NCBI GenBank assembly: GCA_963675755.2
Contig: CAXXMD010000003.1
Location: 288,001-352,000 of the forward strand
From: a bacterium
Lineage (GTDB): Bacteria; Zhuqueibacterota; Zhuqueibacteria; Residuimicrobiales; Krinioviventaceae
Length of the DNA stretch: 64,000 nt
Direction: 5' to 3'
Shown one piece after another: positions 7,306 through 57,351 of the stretch (position 1 is its first letter; each line of letters begins with the position of its first letter). The translations under genes and the position numbers were made by a program. Under the pieces are notes generated by a model. That model made no database searches. It had not been told where the DNA came from and saw only the letters and a program-made list of their open reading frames with translations.

Positions 7306-8119
<814 letters not shown>

Positions 8120-49515: not shown

Positions 49516-51246
49516 TTATTTTGTACTTCGAAACGCAGCCAGCACATCGTTCTGGCTTATGATCCCCAACAGCATGGATGAATTTTCATCATCAATGATG
49601 GGTAAATATGTAACATCGCTATTTTGCTTGAAAATTTCCAAAACTTCGCCCAATGTTTGGTCCGGATAAAGCGCCAAAGGCTCGGGTTTTACAAGGTCAC
49701 GCGCTACAATAAATTTTGCAATGCTTTCATCAAACAAGATATCACGTATATCCTGATAGTCTACAACGCCAATAAATCTTTCATTACGGTTAATTATGGG
49801 GAAACGGTCATATTTACTGTGAGAGATCTGACGTAAAATTTCATTAAAAGGGGTATCTTCGTACAAGGTTTCAACATTTTTACGCATTACATGTTTCACA
49901 TATATATCGGCAGCACTTTTTAGATTATGCCCTTTGGGTACGCCAATAGAAGTACGGAACTGATCAATAACATGATGCAGTCCTTCATAGGTACCTTCTT
50001 TGGCTTTCTTGGAAAGCAGGGTCAACAGGGGCACCTCACCTGCATGTACAAGGGCCTGACGCACCGTAATGGGTCCGGCAAGCTCAAAAAACACAACAGA
50101 ACCCAGAATTACGGTCTGGATGATCTCTCCGCCTTCCGGCCACTGCCGTGCAAGAGATTGCGACAATCCAATGGCAACACCCGCCTGGGCAATCATTGCA
50201 TATCCCAGCCAGCGCCGCTCAATATATCCAAAATCGCCCCATCTGGCTCCCATCCAGTTTCCCAACACTTTACCGGCGGTTCGCATTATGATATATGCAA
50301 TACCCAGCAAGCCAATGTCTTTCATCACTTCTATGTGCAAACTTGCACCTGCAATTACAAAGAAAAAGACATACAGGGGATAATCCACACTTTTTAACGC
50401 TTCAAACAGATTCCGCTCTTTTGGGGAAGCATTTACTATGGTTAATCCCGTAACAAAGCAGGACAAAAAGATATCCAATCCCCACATCCACGACAATCCG
50501 ATATTCGCAACAATGCCGCCAATAAGCAGCATCAGGTATTCTGTACGACTCTCGACATTCTGCGCCCACACACTGATGAGCACACCGGTGAGGAATCCCA
50601 AAACGATGGGGCCAAACATGGCTAGCAAAAACATTGTTACAGATCCGCTGCTGTTGAGCAGTAAAAATGTAATGATGTTAAAGATCAAAATAGAGAATAG
50701 ATTATTTAATCCGACCAGTGAAAGCGCAAGGTCCGTTACCGGGCCTTCGGAATCATATTCACGGATTACCATTAATGACGCAGCGGGTGCGGTTGCAATA
50801 GCAATGATACCGGTAAATATGGCCAAATAGATTGATGATCCCAATAAACCTAATGACGCGCCCAAAACGGTTTTATTGAGCAGCATGTTGAACACAAATA
50901 TGGTGATGGAAACCAGAATAAATGTAGCTGCCATTTCTGAAATAGACAGCCGGGCCATGCGTTTGCCCCAGCGTCTGAGAGATTGGAACTTGAACTGACT
51001 TCCGATGGTCAGCATAATAAAAGCCAGTGCAACATCAGAAATGATTTTTACAAATTCCAATACTTCATGGCTGATCAACTCGGGGTAACCCAGCATATGC
51101 GCCATAGACGGGCCTGCAGCCAGGCCTACCAGCAGATATCCGGTAACCCTGGGAACACGCAAACGTGCGGCAACACGACCAAATATCAATGCCGCAAGAA
51201 AGCAGATCCCGGTAGAAAATAAAGTGTGGTTAATGTGCAGGTCCAA
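49516..51246 (-). CDS. Cation:proton antiporter with C-terminal CBS pair
   Basis: About 12 TM helices, ATAPA, QAGVAIGL; two CBS domains. Confidence 0.85.
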   Translation of the reverse strand: MDLHINHTLFSTGICFLAALIFGRVAARLRVPRVTGYLLVGLAAGPSMAHMLGYPELISHEVLEFVKIISDVALAFIMLTIGSQFKFQSLRRWGKRMARLSISEMAATFILVSITIFVFNMLLNKTVLGASLGLLGSSIYLAIFTGIIAIATAPAASLMVIREYDSEGPVTDLALSLVGLNNLFSILIFNIITFLLLNSSGSVTMFLLAMFGPIVLGFLTGVLISVWAQNVESRTEYLMLLIGGIVANIGLSWMWGLDIFLSCFVTGLTIVNASPKERNLFEALKSVDYPLYVFFFVIAGASLHIEVMKDIGLLGIAYIIMRTAGKVLGNWMGARWGDFGYIERRWLGYAMIAQAGVAIGLSQSLARQWPEGGEIIQTVILGSVVFFELAGPITVRQALVHAGEVPLLTLLSKKAKEGTYEGLHHVIDQFRTSIGVPKGHNLKSAADIYVKHVMRKNVETLYEDTPFNEILRQISHSKYDRFPIINRNERFIGVVDYQDIRDILFDESIAKFIVARDLVKPEPLALYPDQTLGEVLEIFKQNSDVTYLPIIDDENSSMLLGIISQNDVLAAFRSTK

Positions 51247-51364
51247 TTCAAATTCCGAAATAGTCTATGATCTGTTTGTTAAACATAGACATTCCCGACT
51301 AAATAATCAAGATTTATTAAACCGGAACAGGAAATGCGTGGGAAAAGATGATGGATAGTTTCAA

Positions 51365-52552
51365 GATCGTGACGGAGTTTAGCGTCAGCGGTCTCCGTCA
51401 CGAAATACTTCTTAACATCTGGATATCCATATCACTCCCCAATGATCGTGACGGAGTTAAGCGCCAGCGTTCTCCGTCACGGATATCTTTTTAACATCTG
51501 GATATCCACAACCAAAGATCCAACGATCGTGACGGAGTTAAGCGATAGCGTTCTCCGTCACGGAATACTTCTTAACATCTGGATCCCCACACCGTCCACC
51601 AACGATCGTGACGGAGTTAAGCGATAGCGGTCTCCGTCACGTATATCCTACTTTCTGGAGTGATCCATACTTATAAAATCAGAAACAATCACACGCAACG
51701 GAGAACACTGCGTTCATCTCCGTTGCGATCTTTTTTTAGATCGTGACGGAGTTAAGCGCCAGCGATCTCCGTCACGGAAATCCTGATTTTTTTGGTTGAT
51801 CCATTATTGTAAAACCATGAACATCTTGCGCAACGGAGAACAGAACACTACGTTTATCTCCGTTGCGATCATTTCTTTTAGATAGTGACAAAGTTTAGCG
51901 TCAGCGGTCTCCGTCGCGGAAATCTTTTTGACATCTGGATATCCACATCGATCCCAAATGATCGTGACGGAGTTTAGCGCCAGCAGTCTCCGTCGCGGAA
52001 CTCTTTTTAACATCTGGATATCCACATCGTCCACCAACGATCGTGACGGAGTTAAGCGCCAGCGGTCTCCGTCACGGATATCTTTTTGACATCCGGAATT
52101 CCACACCGTCCACCAACGATCGTGACGGAGTTAAGCGTCAGCTGTCTCCGTCACGGAATTCTTTTTAACATCTGGATATCCACAACCAAAGATCCAACGA
52201 TCGTGACGGAGTTAAGCGCCAGCAGTCTCCGTCACGGAACTCTTTTTAACATCTGGATATCCACATCGTTCCCCAATTATCATGACGGAGTTAAGCGTCA
52301 GCGGTCTCCGTCACGGAACTCTTTTTGACATCTGGATATCCACATCGATCCCAAATGATCGTGACGGAGTTTAGCGCCAGCAGTCTCCGTCGCGGAACTC
52401 TTTTTAACATCTGGATATCCACATCGTCCACCAACGATCGTGACGGAGTTAAGCGCCAGCGGTCTCCGTCACGGATATCTTTTTGACATCCGGAATTCCA
52501 CACCGTCCACCAACGATCGTGACGGAGTTAAGCGTCAGCTGTCTCCGTCACG
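51365..52552. repeat. Left REP array: 14 type-A hairpins (mostly 79-81 bp period) and 2 inverted type-B hairpins
   Basis: Type A GATCGTGACGGAG-N15-CTCCGTCACG at 51365, 51444, 51525, 51604, 51739, 51881, 51960, 52039, 52118, 52199, 52278, 52357, 52436, 52515; type B at 51694 and 51829. Confidence 0.92.
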
Positions 52553-52670
52553 GGATACTTGAAAAAATAAATACTTGAATCATTAAATATTATTATTAAA
52601 TTAAAGCATACAACTCTTGGGGCGGTTGTATATACCCCATCAACACCAATATCATTACAAGTGAAACGAT

Positions 52671-53204
52671 ATGAGATCAAGATTCAAGGTCTATCCTGAT
52701 ACAGGAATGTATTATATCACTTCAACAATTATTGATTGGACACCTATCATTATCAATGATGATATATGTACAATCCTCATTAATTCTTTCAAACACTGTC
52801 AGGAACACAAGAATTTATGGATATTCGGATATGTTATCATGCCAAATCATTTCCACATGATCATATCCATGGAAAACAGTCTTGACATCCCAAATGTAAT
52901 TCGCGATATGAAACGATACACATCACGGAAAATCTCAAACTATATCAAACAAAATACCAGACAAAACTTTAAACCGTGGTTAAAGCAGTTCTGCGCAACG
53001 AATGGCAATACGGTCTGGCAAAAAGGGTATCATCCTATTTTGATTGAAAGTGACAAATGGTTCAACCAAAAATTGGATTACATCCATTACAATCCAGTAG
53101 AAAAAGGTTTTGTCGATCTACCTGAATACTGGAGATATTCGAGTGCCAGAAACTATATACTGGACGATCATTCGATCCTCAGTCTTGATCTTGATAAATT
53201 ATAA
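52671..53204 (+). CDS. REP-associated tyrosine transposase (RAYT, Y1_Tnp HUH endonuclease)
   Basis: YYITST, GYVIMPNHFH (HUH), DMKRYTS, WQKGYH, LDYIHYNPV (catalytic Tyr), WRYSSA. Confidence 0.9.
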   Translation: MRSRFKVYPDTGMYYITSTIIDWTPIIINDDICTILINSFKHCQEHKNLWIFGYVIMPNHFHMIISMENSLDIPNVIRDMKRYTSRKISNYIKQNTRQNFKPWLKQFCATNGNTVWQKGYHPILIESDKWFNQKLDYIHYNPVEKGFVDLPEYWRYSSARNYILDDHSILSLDLDKL

Positions 53205-53237
53205 CCAGCATGTCTCGTTAAAACAGAAACAATCACA

Positions 53238-54149
53238 CGCAACGGAGAACACTGCGTTCATCTCCGTTGCGATCATTTTTTTATTTGTAATCAACGATTA
53301 CAAAAAGGATCAGTATCTACAAGCGTCCTTATGAATATTTTCAAGCTATAAGAACATGCACCAAGCAATCCCAAAGATCGTGACGGAGTTAAGCGATAGC
53401 GTTCTCCGTCACGGGAAACTCGATCTCTTGAGTGATCCATACTAGTAAAACCAGAAACATCTTGCGCAACGGAGAACACTGCGTTCATCTCCGTTGCGAT
53501 CATTTTTTTATTTGTAGTCAACGATTACAAAAAGGATCAGTATCTACAAGCGTCCTTATAAATATTTTCAAGCTAAAAGAACATGCCCAAGCAACCCAAA
53601 AGATCGTGACGGAGTTAAGCGATAGCGGTCTCCGTCACGTATATCCTACTTTCTGGAGTGATCCATACTTATAAAATCAGAAACAATCACACGCAACGGA
53701 GAACACTGCGTTCATCTCCGTTGCGATCATTTTTTTATTTGTAGTCAACGATTACAAAAAGGATCAGTATCTACAAGCGTCCTTATAAATATTTTCAAGC
53801 TAAAAGAACATGCCCAAGCAACCCAAAAGATCGTGACGGAGTTAAGCGATAGCGGTCTCCGTCACGTATATCCTACTTTCTGGAGTGATCCATACTTATA
53901 AAATCAGAAACAATCATACGCAACGGAGAACACTGCGTTCATCTCCGTTGCGATCTTTTTTTAGATCGTGACGGAGTTAAGCGCCAGCGATCTCCGTCAC
54001 GGAAATCCTGATTTTTTTGGTTGATCCATTATTGTAAAACCATGAACATCTTGCGCAACGGAGAACAGAACACTACGTTTATCTCCGTTGCGATCATTTC
54101 TTTTAGATAGTGACAAAGTTTAGCGTCAGCGGTCTCCGTCGCGGAAATC
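53238..54149. repeat. Middle BIME-like array of alternating B/A REPs (227-bp period, then short modules)
   Basis: B at 53238, 53465, 53692, 53919, 54054; A at 53376, 53602, 53829, 53964, 54106. Confidence 0.92.
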
Positions 54150-54296
54150 CGAATTCAGACAAAACAAGAATCCCCTTTGCGCCCTTGGCGTTTTCCCTGC
54201 GCCCCTTGCGTTTGGCAGTTTTTACATATTAACTATCAACAAAGCACAACCCTAATCTTACAATCCTATAAATCCCAATAATCTTAATTCAGACAA

Positions 54297-55178
54297 TTAC
54301 TCCGCATGCTCTGCACGGGTTTGATTGATCAATCCAAAAACTTCCTGATTAACATCCACATCTATATTATAATACAGCTCGTTAACAATATCCGGTCCCT
54401 CTCTGGTGAAAACCGCAGCATATACATCAAGACTATTCAAATCAATATAAACATCCGCAAAGTGGTCACCGCAATTGTGGGACTCGCACCCTTTCAGCAC
54501 CAGGAAACCATCCTGTATCGCTACTGGCATCTGTACACCAAATGCGGCTTTGAACGCGTCATATTGATCACCCATTATCTCTTTTAAATTATCTTCAACT
54601 CCTTCTACCTGCGCCAGCACTTCGTTAGGGTATTTGGATACATACCCCGCAAGCGTTTCCGCCGTCAAAGCCTCGGATTGGAGTTGAAACGGATCATCCT
54701 CGGTTTCCGTCAAGAATCCCTTTACATATTTCCAGCGGGATACCACCTGTCCCAGCTCATCACATTCCGCAATTTCAATCACATCACCAGAGCCTTCAAC
54801 ATACCCCTTGGTGATTCGGTAAAACCAGAATTCCAGTTCTCCCAGCATTTGATAAGAAGGATCATCATAAATGCCGATCAATCGCAATACCGGGGGACAA
54901 CAATTGCCGCCCTGGTGCTCTGAGATTATGATCACATCTTCATCACCATTCACTCCCGGGAAAAAGGCCTCAACCATGCCCATGCCATATTCCCCGTTAT
55001 TGATTTTGCAAACCTCCTGCGAATTGATTTTCACCAATAGGTTCATCCCATTGATTTCCGCAATCACGAATTCCCCGCCAATGGTATTGATTTTTACAGA
55101 ATCCTCAGCATACACACTGCTTGTATGAGGTACTATCCAAATCAAAAGAAATATAAAGCCCAATCTCCATGCTTTCAT
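54297..55178 (-). CDS. Secreted acidic protein with C-terminal Ivy-like (lysozyme inhibitor) motif
   Basis: Signal peptide, GGAG RBS; GCESHNCGDH resembles the Ivy CKPHDC loop (family assignment is inference). Confidence 0.6.
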   Translation of the reverse strand: MKAWRLGFIFLLIWIVPHTSSVYAEDSVKINTIGGEFVIAEINGMNLLVKINSQEVCKINNGEYGMGMVEAFFPGVNGDEDVIIISEHQGGNCCPPVLRLIGIYDDPSYQMLGELEFWFYRITKGYVEGSGDVIEIAECDELGQVVSRWKYVKGFLTETEDDPFQLQSEALTAETLAGYVSKYPNEVLAQVEGVEDNLKEIMGDQYDAFKAAFGVQMPVAIQDGFLVLKGCESHNCGDHFADVYIDLNSLDVYAAVFTREGPDIVNELYYNIDVDVNQEVFGLINQTRAEHAE

Positions 55179-55342
55179 GCAAAACTCCGGAAACAGTTGA
55201 TCATTTTTATGAATTTACAAAATTAATAAATCAAAAAACATGCCGATTTGGATAGCTTGTCGCGAAATATGATTAAAAGACAAAACGCAAAGTACGCCAA
55301 GAGGTTGCCAGGGACGCAGAGGAAAAGCTCATTTTGGAAATA

Positions 55343-56013
55343 GATCGTGACGGAGATTAGATAGTGACAAAGTTTAGCACCAGCAGTCTCAGTCACGAAA
55401 TTCTTTTTCCCTCTCGCCACCTACAACTACCCCACAACGATCGTGACGGAGATTAGCGCCAGCGGTCTCCGTCACGGAAATCCTGATTTTTTTGGTTGAT
55501 CCATTATTGTAAAGCCATGAACATCTTGCGCAACGGAGAACACTGCGTTCATCTCCGTTGCGATCATTTCTTTTAGATCGTGACGGAGATTAGCGCCAGC
55601 GGTCTCCGTCACGGGATATCCTGATTTCTTGAATGACCCACATTTTTAAATCAAAATACCTTGCGCAACGGAGAACACTACGTTCATCTCCGTTGCGATC
55701 ATTTCTTTTAGATCGTGACGGAGTTAAGCACCAGCGGTCTCCGTCACGGAAATCCTGATTTTTTTGGTTGATCCATTATTGTAAAACCATGAACATCTTG
55801 CACAACGGAGAACACTGCGTTTATCTCTGTTGCGATCATTTCTTTTAGATAGTGACAGAGTTTAGCACCAGTAGTCTCAGTCACGAAATCATGTAATCCT
55901 GTAATCTTTTAATCCTTTTAATCATGGTTCAGATCGTGACAGAGTTTAGCACCAGCAGCCTCCGTGGCGAAATCATGTAATCCTGTAATCTTTTAATCCT
56001 TTTAATCATGGTT
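55343..56013. repeat. Right REP array (~135-137 bp A/B modules, ending in two 84-bp units)
   Basis: A at 55343 (half), 55360, 55439, 55576, 55711, 55848, 55932; B at 55529, 55664, 55801. Confidence 0.9.
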
Positions 56014-56100
56014 AAAAAATATTATCAGGGTCTCTAACTTTTTCCTTGTACTCTAGTCTGTTTTTTCGTTTCTTAATGAAAAACAATGGAGAGATAAAAC

Positions 56101-57351
56101 ATGTATTCCTCAGAAATAGCAAGCAAACCCAAACCCTCAAAAGCTTACAGATGGACCGTACTGATTTTTATCAGCATGGCCATGTTTGGCAATTACTATA
56201 TCTATGACAGCATCAGTCCCCTGGCGGACGTACTCAAAGCGCAGCTCGGTTTTACAGATAGCAACATCGGGCTTTTAAACGCAATTTACAGCCTGCCCAA
56301 TATCCTCATGGTACTGATCGGGGGCATTATTATTGATTTTATCGGTACAAAAAAAGCATCATTTCTGTTTGCTGCCCTCTGTCTCACAGGCGCTATTGTG
56401 ACAGTATCCCACGGATCTCTTGCGGTAATGGCCACAGGCAGATTAATTTTTGGTCTGGGCGCGGAATCGCTCATCGTTGCCGTCACCACAGTTATTGCAA
56501 AATGGTTCAAAGGCAAAGAACTGGGATTCGCAATGGGTATAAACCTAACCATATCACGCCTGGCTACCTTTGCCGCGCTCAACTCTCCCACAATTGCCAA
56601 ACCACTGTATGTCAATTGGCAGTATCCTCTTCTAATTGCTGTTGGAGCGGGTGTTATCTCGGTATTATCCGTTATCATATACTTTTCACTTGAATCCAAA
56701 GCAGAGAGATTATATCACCTGGGTGAAGCAGAAGAAGTGGACAAGATCAATATCAAGACCATGTTTAAAATGAATCCCTCTTTTTGGTTCATTACTTTAT
56801 TGTGTGTTACATTCTATTCAGCAATTTTTCCGTTCCAGACCTTTGCTGTCAAGCTGTTCATGGAACAGCATGGTCTCACCCGAGAGCTGGCAGGCTTCAC
56901 ATCCAGCATCATCACATTTGCGTCTATGGTTATGACCCCCTTGTTTGGACTGCTAATCGACAAAGTCGGCAAACGCGCAAGTTTAATGATGTTTGGTTCA
57001 ATACTACTGGTTCCAGTTTATCTGCTGCTGGTCTACACTTCCCTCCCGCCCATGGTCCCAATGGCTTTAATGGGTATTGCATTCTCGCTCGTACCTGCTG
57101 CCATGTGGCCCGCGGTTGCTCTGATTGTAGAATCCAATCGTCTGGGTACGGCATATGGACTCATGACCATGATCCAGAACATCGGTTTATTCGGGTTCAA
57201 TATGGTTATAGGCTATGCAAATGATTTTTCCGGCGGCTATACTGCGGGAATGTGGATTTTCTCCATTCTTGGTTTTGCAGGAATGCTTTTCGCGTGGCTG
57301 CTGAAACGCGCGGATGAACAACACAATAATGGCGCACTTGAAAGTGCTTGA
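56101..57351 (+). CDS. Major facilitator superfamily transporter
   Basis: 12 TM helices, GIIIDFIG.K and GLLIDKVGKR motif A, GRLIFGLG. Confidence 0.9.
   Translation: MYSSEIASKPKPSKAYRWTVLIFISMAMFGNYYIYDSISPLADVLKAQLGFTDSNIGLLNAIYSLPNILMVLIGGIIIDFIGTKKASFLFAALCLTGAIVTVSHGSLAVMATGRLIFGLGAESLIVAVTTVIAKWFKGKELGFAMGINLTISRLATFAALNSPTIAKPLYVNWQYPLLIAVGAGVISVLSVIIYFSLESKAERLYHLGEAEEVDKINIKTMFKMNPSFWFITLLCVTFYSAIFPFQTFAVKLFMEQHGLTRELAGFTSSIITFASMVMTPLFGLLIDKVGKRASLMMFGSILLVPVYLLLVYTSLPPMVPMALMGIAFSLVPAAMWPAVALIVESNRLGTAYGLMTMIQNIGLFGFNMVIGYANDFSGGYTAGMWIFSILGFAGMLFAWLLKRADEQHNNGALESA

Follow-up and report, generated by a model that had tools for sequence, protein, structure and literature searches.

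To our knowledge, work on RAYT/REP systems has dealt almost exclusively with Proteobacteria and their GTAG-footed hairpins. The E. coli K-12 REPtron (TnpAREP/RayT/YafM, PDB 4ER8, with Y/Z2 REPs) is described by Ton-Hoang et al. (2012, PMC3333891) as a single-copy gene bordered by alternately oriented REPs in varying number and with two linker classes; local amplification of BIMEs is proposed for the E. coli REPtrons, and tandem BIMEs were assembled in vitro by TnpAREP. For Pseudomonas fluorescens SBW25, Bertels and Rainey (2011, PMC3116915) describe tandem REP arrays of a single orientation and REPIN clusters beside the RAYTs. Subclass 2.6 of the TnpAY1 family (Quentin et al. 2018, PMC6006769), which is RAYT Group 5 of Bertels et al. 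(2017, PMC5581495), has the motifs NH[LIV]H, WQ, and YIH[QN]NP, a median length of 179 aa, and an SS tail (Table 1 of PMC6006769), and its flanking REPs are atypical, lack the GT[AG]G foot, and have copies elsewhere in the genome.

Positions 51365 to 56013 of the window, i.e., the 64-kb stretch of DNA that was analyzed as a whole, very probably hold such a REPtron, with a single-copy, domesticated RAYT/TnpAREP lying between inverted copies of its REP hairpins. The gene (52671-53204, plus strand) encodes a protein of 177 aa that matches the NCBIfam model of REP-associated tyrosine transposases, NF047646, with 116.4 bits (cut-off, 80; E = 9.3e-34; model positions 5-146 of 146) and PF01797 of Pfam with 39.8 bits. 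Its HUH motif (N59-H60-F61-H62) and its tyrosine motif (Y137-I-H-Y-N-P142) are intact, as the preliminary description had noted for a Y1/HUH protein of this length, and H60, H62, Y137, and P142 are invariant across 29 aligned homologues. In a Foldseek search with the AF2 model (pLDDT, 89.4), the first match was E. coli TnpAREP bound to a REP hairpin (4er8_A; TM 0.68/0.72; E = 4.2e-9), followed by TnpA of ISDra2 and IS608 (2xo6 and 2vjv). The gene is present once in the genome, the next tblastn matches being 43, 25, and 24% identical, and it is flanked by hairpins in inverted orientation: one on the plus strand at 52515, 119 nt upstream (type A), and one on the minus strand at 53238, 33 nt downstream (type B), both with their feet pointing outward. 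Judged by profile, motifs, and modeled fold, the protein is a REP-associated tyrosine transposase, a domesticated Y1/HUH enzyme, and we infer, from adjacency only, that the hairpins are its cognate REPs. The preliminary assignment of protein and hairpins as a RAYT with its REPs is thus borne out by a profile score above the cut-off, by 4ER8 as the best fold, and by the inverted flanking hairpins.

By its motifs and the published description, the RAYT appears to be closest to subclass 2.6. The two have in common the length (177 aa here), the WQ, a tyrosine motif of the form Y---NP, the C-terminal SS tail (here W154-R-Y-S157-S158-A-R-N-Y, i.e., W..YSS), a low copy number, hairpins without GT[AG]G that recur elsewhere in the genome, and an insertion of about 20 residues before the WQ strand. 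Here, this insertion (residues 97-115, preceding VWQ) falls in a lower-confidence stretch of the model, whose predicted secondary structure would make it the alphaC:beta4 insertion. The differences are two single-residue departures, NHFH instead of NH[LIV]H and YIHYNP instead of YIH[QN]NP, and a host that does not belong to the Bacteroidetes. In the clade of 29 sequences, the motifs read NHxH (x = F, L, I, V, A, or W), VWQ, and YIHxNP with N as the commonest residue, and the consensus tail is HWKYSSARNY. Among the rows of Table S1 of PMC6006769 that were covered, GATC is not given as a foot, none of the 12 occurrences of the string "gatc" being one. The claim of a new REPtron-type system therefore fails: the RAYT passes the NCBIfam equivalog cut-off, its clade largely fits subclass 2.6 in motifs, length, tail, and atypical REPs, and the pair thus belongs to an already described class, the outcome that the preliminary description had itself named as refuting.

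With the E. coli REPtron, the locus has in common the fold of the enzyme, the single-copy gene bordered by alternately oriented REPs, and the two linker classes, which here measure 8 to 13 nt (head-to-head) and about 54 nt (tail-to-tail); local tandem amplification is proposed there too (PMC3333891). In contrast, the two proteins are only 17% identical in the structural alignment (the sequence E value is only 0.009), the foot is GATC and not GTAG, the stems are perfect and without a bulge, the loop is long (14-15 nt), and A-only head-to-tail arrays are present. Moreover, the REPtron holds about 36% of the family here, whereas the E. coli REPtron has a few copies out of several hundred (PMC3333891). 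The ordered tandem arrays, the two REP types, the fixed spacings, the arrays in which only one REP type recurs at even spacing, the one orientation per array, and the clusters adjoining each RAYT have their counterparts in SBW25 (PMC3116915); there, however, the RAYTs are of other groups (Bertels Groups 2 and 3), and each family has hundreds of members, compared to a small family of 97 sites concentrated at the RAYT here. TnpA of the IS200/IS605 family (IS608 and ISDra2) shares the HUH/Y1 catalytic core and gave the second-best structural matches, and, by analogy, sub-terminal hairpins would likewise be recognized on single-stranded DNA. The tyrosine motif is Y---NP and not the Y---Q of that family (PMC6006769), though, and the locus has neither multiple identical copies nor an ORF of the size of tnpB. 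An IS200/IS605 insertion sequence was rejected, since there is no second copy and the IS200 profile NF033573 scored 31.2 bits, under its cut-off of 55.

The hairpins form one family with an unpaired 5' GAT(C) foot and a stem of 10 to 12 bp that starts with CGTGACGGAG. Type A has the layout GATC-GTGACGGAG-15 nt-CTCCGTCAC, and type B reads GCAACGGAGA-loop-TCTCCGTTGC-GATC on the plus strand, so that its foot lies on the minus strand. Long-loop forms (14-15 nt), the stem variant of type B (CGCAACGGAGA), and short double-foot palindromes occur, and the preliminary description was right to call the repeat head unusual, the foot being GATC rather than the classical GT[AG]G. Computed as single-stranded DNA, the hairpins have stabilities of −12.7 and −13.5 kcal/mol (z = −3.6 and −5.9), and no Rfam family matched them at E ≤ 0.1. 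A profile search found 97 distinct sites genome-wide, with units of 33 to 37 nt; 35 (about 36%) lie in the three spacers around the RAYT, and of the 62 further sites, 58 are on contig C3 and 4 on contig C2. Two A-like copies with a 15-nt loop lie on the opposite strand, 19 kb from the locus. Only 4 of the 62 outside sites fall in an open frame of at least 150 codons, compared to 89% of 2,000 random sites, which makes the family strongly extragenic. The hairpins are thus short, palindromic, repeated, and extragenic, as REPs are, and 97 copies is at the low edge of the more than 100 per genome that are usual according to PMC2817692. In the preliminary description, no copies had been seen by eye in the other 59 kb or so of the window, and the repeats had been taken as possibly confined to the locus. 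A pattern search indeed found neither type in the rest of the 64-kb window, but with 62 further sites in the genome, the family is not locus-confined, and the sister species has 15 exact matches.

Of 167 genomes of the phylum, 2 have the exact REP pattern, that of the window with 53 matches and that of the sister species with 15. Every other Y1/RAYT gene of this genome and of relatives has its own, different flanking hairpin. The hairpins of one paralogue agree with the REP family in the foot and in the first bases of the stem (GATCGTGA...), so that cross-activity may occur.

Within the locus, the profile search gave 35 distinct hairpin sites, 25 on the plus strand and 10 on the minus strand. 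All 25 type A matches in the window (up to 3 mismatches; 0.01 expected by chance) are on the plus strand and within 51369-55968; a truncated copy of 17 nt (55343-55359) comes in addition. All type B copies are on the minus strand, eight with a 12-nt loop and two with a 17-nt loop (51830 and 54055), and the strict strand bias of some 35 hairpins seen previously is thus confirmed. So are the tandem arrays of several periods, which TRF places at 79, 135 to 137, 227, and 84 nt. Array 1 (51365-52553, plus strand), 5' of the RAYT, has 14 type A (+) and 2 type B (−) hairpins and runs from A-only 79-nt units (TRF, 51365-51653) through two 135-nt A/B units (51604-51924) to 8.5 further A-only 79-nt units (51881-52553). 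Array 2 (53219-54150), 3' of the RAYT, has five type B (−) alternating with five type A (+) hairpins, arranged as 3.3 units of 227 nt (53219-53963) followed by 135-nt units (53828-54150); a T-run follows its first B, which is found 33 nt past the stop codon of the RAYT. Array 3 (55341-56013) comprises the truncated A, six type A (+; three of them degenerate), and three type B (−) hairpins in 137-nt A/B units (55439-55890) and two 84-nt units (55847-56013). With A(+) and B(−) in alternation, both head-to-head and tail-to-tail, the 135-, 137-, and 227-nt units are BIMEs, whereas the 79-nt and 84-nt arrays, being A-only, lack the alternation and strictly speaking are no BIMEs. The 79-nt arrays, which run head-to-tail, also differ from the alternating form of BIME used for studies of the E. 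coli enzyme. A CRISPR array was rejected, as the 42-nt "spacers" are themselves repeated and whole 79-nt units match at 83 to 86%.

The long duplications that had been reported as exact are 97 to 100% identical over 227 to 300 nt. One 227-nt unit (53465-53691) is repeated without a difference at 53692-53918, a higher-order block of five units (51886-52163) recurs at 52283-52560 with 97% identity, and a 300-nt A-B-A-B block (51601-51900, plus strand) recurs in direct orientation at 53826-54125 with 99% identity, so that the two copies bracket the A-only array, the RAYT gene, and the 227-nt array.

Upstream of array 1 lies a gene for a Na+/H+ exchanger with CBS domains (49516-51246, minus strand; 576 aa; PF00999, 93 bits; PF00571, 87 bits) and downstream of array 3 a gene for an MFS transporter (56101-57351, plus strand; 416 aa; PF07690, 180 bits); they have 93 and 90% DNA identity, respectively, with the syntenic genes of a sister species (genome G001). 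Between arrays 2 and 3, a gene for a protein of 293 aa (54297-55178, minus strand) had been taken for an enclosed passenger. The protein has no match in Pfam or NCBIfam and only a weak Atlas lead to Ivy/Y4bG_N clusters (score, 0.88). The gene was found in 2 of 41 related genomes, its own and that of the sister, with 92% amino acid identity and at the same position between the antiporter and MFS genes, although the RAYT was not found there; by gene context, it is an ordinary resident whose flanking spacers were colonized, and not a passenger. The interval from the antiporter gene to the 293-aa gene is variable between the two species. An empty site had been envisaged for a relative; the RAYT is indeed absent from the interval in the sister, but the slot is occupied by a Thoeris-like defense island, and the 293-aa gene is kept. 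The spacer orthologous to array 3 holds a single A-B-A' unit in the sister (L036:7194-7370), compared to 9 to 10 hairpins here. Several dispersed REPs are orthologous in both species, and therefore, much of the family predates the species split and need not mean recent activity.

By analogy to E. coli TnpAREP, the enzyme would bind the folded hairpin and its foot on single-stranded DNA at the replication fork, cut near the hairpin via a 5'-phosphotyrosine intermediate, and carry out a strand transfer, which would seed REP/BIME units in trans. The arrays would then have expanded locally by tandem duplication of whole units and of multi-unit blocks. Such local growth is suggested by the one unit in the sister compared to 9 to 10 hairpins here and by the blocks of 97 to 100% identity. 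Two routes are conceivable, strand transfer by the RAYT, as in the model of Ton-Hoang et al., and host slippage or unequal crossing-over between direct repeats, and for the latest steps, the duplication of higher-order blocks favors the host route. It is a serious possibility, if not the probable one, that the arrays are altogether a satellite-like product of host slippage and unequal recombination, with an uninvolved and perhaps inactive RAYT. Multi-unit blocks were duplicated as blocks (the five-unit block, the 227-nt unit, and the A-B-A-B block astride the RAYT), and elsewhere, where this genome has a 2.7-kb segment bounded by two direct REPs, the sister has only one REP, whose flanks match, as recombination from repeat to repeat would give. 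However, a host-only route leaves unexplained why the densest arrays lie exactly at the RAYT and why 62 copies lie at unrelated extragenic sites, and the E. coli enzyme itself assembles tandem BIMEs in vitro (PMC3333891). The two amplification mechanisms are not exclusive. It is doubtful, but imaginable, that the REPtron is in an active phase, in which the RAYT builds head-to-tail arrays through rounds of one-ended cleavage and strand transfer at the GATC foot, as in the amplification arm of the model of Ton-Hoang et al., and the arrays serve as a nursery for units and REP-bounded, multi-kb segments that are moved or deleted elsewhere. This would fit the 2.7-kb REP-to-REP indel and several breaks of homology between the sister genomes that lie no more than a few bases from the edge of a REP.

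That the assembly inflated or mis-ordered the units is improbable. No contig of the three public runs, which are from one study and may be of the source sample, spans any array, so that the array copy numbers come from the assembly alone, and the short-read pieces end inside repeats (e.g., 51000-51515, 52524-53253, and 54120-55468). On the other hand, the genome is in 3 contigs of 0.39 to 3.6 Mb, short-read contigs (two runs, one sample) cover without differences each of the transitions from unique to repeat DNA that flank the RAYT and the 293-aa gene on either side, the point changes between units are ordered, and the orthologous spacer of the sister, whose genome is a single contig, contains the same hairpins. 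We also consider it unlikely that the arrays are kept for a host function apart from mobility, as terminators or insulators, mRNA stabilizers, or sites for nucleoid proteins. REPs are reported in such roles in other bacteria (PMC3733652 and PMC3333891), the hairpins are extragenic, and B hairpins are followed by T-runs on the plus strand, as after the RAYT stop codon. Yet a scan for terminator-like structures found 7, hardly more than the 3.9 expected from shuffles, and caught only partial B stems on the minus strand, Rfam gave no match, termination does not need 14 tandem copies, and at the shared spacer, a single unit suffices in the sister. Arrival of the 293-aa gene as cargo of an autonomous mobile element, IS200/IS605-type or composite, would agree with the absence of the RAYT region from the sister and with the variable interval, but is highly improbable: the gene has the same position in the sister without a RAYT, a near-identical second RAYT copy and a large TnpB-like ORF (among the locus ORFs of at least 50 aa) are both missing, and the repeats that flank the RAYT block are direct and not terminal inverted ends.

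In sum, the locus is no new kind of system, and every structural feature has a published precedent. What sets this REPtron apart is the GATC foot, the share of about 36% of the family at the RAYT locus, the heavy local copying, and the uncultured lineage. With the GATC foot, perfect stems, and three structural forms, the hairpins would be handy substrates for studies of target recognition by an enzyme of the subclass 2.6 type. The species pair, a 97-site genome with a RAYT and a sister with fewer copies in which the RAYT was not found, offers a natural comparison for the question of whether RAYTs maintain REP populations; the contrast between RAYT presence and REP count (53 and 15 exact matches) is that of one species pair. 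If the REPtron were indeed in an active phase, the locus would be natural evidence for a RAYT that amplifies REPs in cis and remodels gene content at REP feet, far from the Proteobacteria.

Between the Na+/H+ exchanger-CBS gene (49516-51246, minus strand) and the MFS gene (56101-57351, plus strand), the window (C3:288001-352000 of genome G000, 6.48 Mb in three contigs, C1 to C3) contains two genes and three repeat blocks. One of the genes is a REP-associated tyrosine transposase (RAYT) by family, fold, and motifs; it stands in REPtron geometry to its hairpins, which show local block duplications and belong to a dispersed extragenic family. The RAYT open reading frame (52671-53204, plus strand) encodes 177 aa with the motifs NHFH and YIHYNP and scored 116.4 bits with NCBIfam NF047646 ("REP-associated tyrosine transposase"; cut-off, 80), 39.8 bits with Pfam Y1_Tnp, and only 31 bits with the IS200 model (cut-off, 55). 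By sequence, TnpAREP of E. coli (4er8) was barely reached (E = 0.009). With an AlphaFold2 model (29 homologues as input; pLDDT 89.4), 4er8_A was the top PDB match (E = 4.2e-9, TM 0.68/0.72), followed by the ISDra2 and IS608 transposases.

Of 203 candidates in a large protein database, 180 were relatives at E <= 1e-10, and many of these carry the JGI name "REP element-mobilizing transposase RayT." The nearest (proteins P0001-P0008; 56 to 61% identity) are of metagenomic origin, and the named hosts are Nitrospinota, Ignavibacteria, Armatimonadota, and Gracilimonas. Invariant in the alignment are N59, H60, H62, Y137, H139, P142, W154, and S157, and the clade consensus reads NHxH, VWQEGYHP, YIHxNP, and HWKYSSARNY. 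At the DNA level, searches of genome and metagenome contigs for closer relatives gave only 1 and 3 loci, at 32 to 44% identity, and no RAYT above 43% identity was found among the 40 relatives searched. Assigned by features and not by a tree, the protein fits best to TnpAY1 subclass 2.6 of Quentin et al. 2018 (PMC6006769), corresponding to Group 5 of Bertels. Table 1 of that study gives for this subclass a median length of 179 aa and the motifs NH[LIV]H, WQ, and YIH[QN]NP, from which the RAYT differs in two letters, the F of NHFH and the Y of YIHYNP; an insertion before strand 4 and SS in the tail are further characters of the subclass, and its flanks are described there as "atypical secondary structures" that lack GT[AG]G and have further copies in the genome.

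The RAYT locus (51365-56013) contains 35 distinct hairpin sites, 25 on the plus and 10 on the minus strand, according to a profile of 48 oriented copies. By array, the counts of type A and type B are 14 and 2 (51.3-52.6 kb), 5 and 5 (53.2-54.2 kb), and 6 and 3 (55.3-56.0 kb). Type A reads GATC-GTGACGGAG-15 nt-CTCCGTCAC on the plus strand; a pattern search of the 64-kb window with up to three mismatches (chance expectation, 0.01) gave 25 matches, all on the plus strand and all inside 51369-55968, and a truncated copy of 17 nt (55343-55359) adjoins the next copy. Type B, as read on the plus strand, is CGCAACGGAGA-loop-TCTCCGTTGCG-ATC; therefore, its foot lies on the minus strand, where the hairpin starts GATCGCAACGGAGA. 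Its loop has 12 nt in eight copies and 17 nt in two (at 51830 and 54055). The foot, GAT(C), stands before a stem starting with CG, and both hairpin types are predicted to be stable when single-stranded, with −12.7 kcal/mol (z = −3.6) and −13.5 kcal/mol (z = −5.9).

TRF recovered tandem periods of 79, 135, 79, 227, 135, 137, and 84 nt at the positions where the preliminary description had placed repeat arrays; together with the pattern matches, profile sites, and duplications, they confirm the hairpin arrays as a whole. In the 135-, 137-, and 227-nt units, A and B alternate in the manner of BIMEs; the head-to-head linkers measure 8 to 13 nt (about 105 nt for the 227-nt unit) and the tail-to-tail linkers about 54 nt. 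Type A alone, arranged head-to-tail, makes up the 79- and 84-nt units. Identity is 100% between the two 227-nt units at the centre and 97% between the two copies of a five-unit block in the 79-nt array. Furthermore, an A-B-A-B block of 300 nt (51601-51900) is repeated at 53826-54125 with 99% identity, and thus the RAYT gene, with the A-only array before it and the 227-nt array after it, lies between the copies of a direct repeat. The copy numbers rest on the assembly: the public short-read contigs, from one study, end inside the repeats, and none spans an array. These contigs are without differences from the assembly at the junctions 51000-51515, 52524-53253, 54120-55468, and 55984 onward; array parts outside their cover permit no inference either way. 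A CRISPR-like array was ruled out because the "spacers" are themselves repeated. Rfam gave no known RNA family at E <= 0.1 in 51000-56300, and promoter and terminator scans were close to shuffle expectation. A short AT-rich motif (aatcc/taatc type) lies by the stop codon of the second enclosed gene (54242-54297) and inside the 84-nt units (55880-56013); with 82 to 91% matches at G001:C1:1304515 and several other places of the sister species (G001), it may be another small dispersed repeat. Elsewhere in the window, TRF also recovered an imperfect CTG/TTG-rich tandem repeat (7431-7663) with periods between 3 and 36 nt, perhaps a coding region of low complexity.

The preliminary description had seen no copies in the other ~59 kb and suggested that the repeats may be locus-confined. 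This holds for the rest of the window, where no other match was found, but not for the genome, in which regex and profile searches revealed 62 further sites (58 on C3, 4 on C2, and 0 on C1). They comprise 34 long-loop hairpins (loops mostly of 14 nt), 23 short palindromes that have a foot at each end (GATCGTGACGGAGAT-n-ATCTCCGTCACGATC), and 5 partial copies. At 19 kb past the locus, the opposite strand has two A-like copies with a 15-nt loop, and small arrays occur at C3:1850036-1850880, C3:743078-743683, and C2:1759784-1760415. Open frames of at least 150 codons contain only 4 of the 62 sites, compared to 89% of 2000 randomly chosen sites. Repetitive, extragenic, and palindromic, the hairpins thus form a REP family, and 36% of its 97 sites are located at the RAYT locus.

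Cumulative GC skew places the origin near C3:1.48 Mb, and among the profile hits listed, dispersed single-foot copies had no consistent strand bias with respect to replication. Left-arm copies lie on the minus strand in 8 of 8 cases (5 clusters), the orientation opposite to that of type A at the locus, and right-arm copies are mixed (about 12 and 12). A tie of the GATC foot to Dam methylation was considered and dropped: a PF02086 search of the genome, with matches in control genomes, gave no D12-class methyltransferase, and GATC occurs about as often as expected (O/E, 0.93).

The genome has four Y1/RAYT-type genes, each flanked by its own hairpin family; the three others (C2:1359735-1360187, C2:1813574-1814032, and C3:2392813-2393220) have families of 12, 21, and 13 sites. 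One hairpin family per RAYT is a published rule (PMC6006769). The GATCG start recurs on different hairpins flanking a RAYT paralogue (GATCGTGATGCAGAT...) and on hairpins beside the 43%-identical RAYT of another genus of the family (gatCGTCCGG...). Different hairpin families share the intergenic regions C3:493425-493790, C3:1391148-1391188, and C2:1759789-1759853 as mixed mosaics. All four families are concentrated on C3, with many sites clustered; this contig makes up 56% of the genome and contains the GC-skew origin as well as 58 of the 62 outside sites of the focal family, and few hairpin sites lie on the terminus-bearing C2 and on C1.

The exact REP pattern is present in 2 of 167 genomes of the phylum, with 53 matches in G000 and 15 in its sister species; with a narrower loop range, the numbers are 34 and 5 (2 of 41 genomes). 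At the orthologous locus of the sister species, the order antiporter, second gene (54297-55178, minus strand; 293 aa), and MFS is the same, with DNA identities of 93% for the antiporter and 86% for the 293-aa gene (92% as protein) and an identity of 90% for MFS. The RAYT was not found in the sister species; its best match in that genome is a 50-residue fragment, and the best RAYT-family match is a gene split in two frames at another place. The 293-aa gene, thought in the preliminary description to be a passenger, is hence resident and specific to this genus, with matches in 2 of the 41 genomes searched. Its product matched no Pfam or NCBIfam family; an Atlas lead to Ivy (lysozyme inhibitor)/Y4bG_N clusters was sub-threshold (0.88, below 0.9), and a C-E-S-H-N-C stretch presumably resembles the Ivy loop motif.

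In place of the RAYT, three genes occupy 3.5 kb between antiporter and 293-aa gene in the sister species. This island (L036:2641-5823 = G001:C1:4902640-4905822, minus strand; orthologous to window 51357-54252) encodes TIR-TPR (297 aa), SLOG-patatin (564 aa), and ThsB-type TIR (182 aa) proteins, predicted to form a Thoeris-like anti-phage defence system. With RAYT and arrays in one species and this island in the other, the interval is therefore a variable hotspot. The spacer between the 293-aa gene and MFS holds a single A-B-A' unit in the sister species (L036:7194-7370) and 9 to 10 hairpins here. The hairpins upstream of the 293-aa gene are thus older than the species split, and the arrays have either expanded in the G000 lineage or contracted in the other.

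How did the family and its arrays arise? For TnpAREP of E. coli, spread in two steps has been proposed, transposition or recombination and then local amplification, and strand transfer by this enzyme yields tandem BIMEs in vitro (Ton-Hoang et al. 2012; PMC3333891). By analogy with this enzyme (PMC3333891; Messing et al. 2012), the RAYT would bind single-stranded DNA at the folded hairpin and its 5' foot, cut near the hairpin via a covalent 5'-phosphotyrosine link, and could rejoin strands. Such action is the most likely origin of the REP family and of the first local copies, and the sister species, where the RAYT was not found, has fewer REPs. The latest array growth looks like duplication of whole multi-unit blocks, an outcome expected of unequal crossing-over or of slippage between direct repeats; going by sequence alone, either this host route or strand transfer by the RAYT may be at work.

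In the two regions compared between the species, no clean filled/empty pair for a single REP was found; the REPs were orthologous, or at homology breakpoints, or part of one REP-to-REP indel. In the latter (G000:C3:2214885-2217636; L051:8885-11636), two direct REPs bound a 2.7-kb segment with ORFs of 435 and 227 aa without Pfam family and two more REPs; the counterpart in the sister species is one REP whose flanks match on both sides (reverse complement of L066, near 9881). Of 10 REPs of the sister species in these syntenic regions (L064-L066 versus L050 and L051), 5 lie within 14 nt of a homology break, 3 inside conserved alignment, and 2 in species-specific DNA; at one, homology with G000 begins right behind the 3' GATC foot. 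In these regions, rearrangement edges thus coincide with REPs, which may be due to the enzyme or to host recombination.

Each feature that had seemed unusual has a published precedent. Feet other than GTAG are described for subclasses 2.6 and 3 and double-foot REPs for subclass 2.4 (PMC6006769), and in P. fluorescens SBW25, tandem arrays combine two REP types at fixed spacing or consist of a single type at even spacing, each array keeps to one orientation, and REPs form clusters by each RAYT (PMC3116915). The GATC foot is not among the feet in the compared rows of Table S1 of PMC6006769. What is particular to this locus is the GATC foot, the long conserved loop of 14 to 15 nt, and the small size of the family, together with the share of the REP family located at the RAYT gene and the host lineage.
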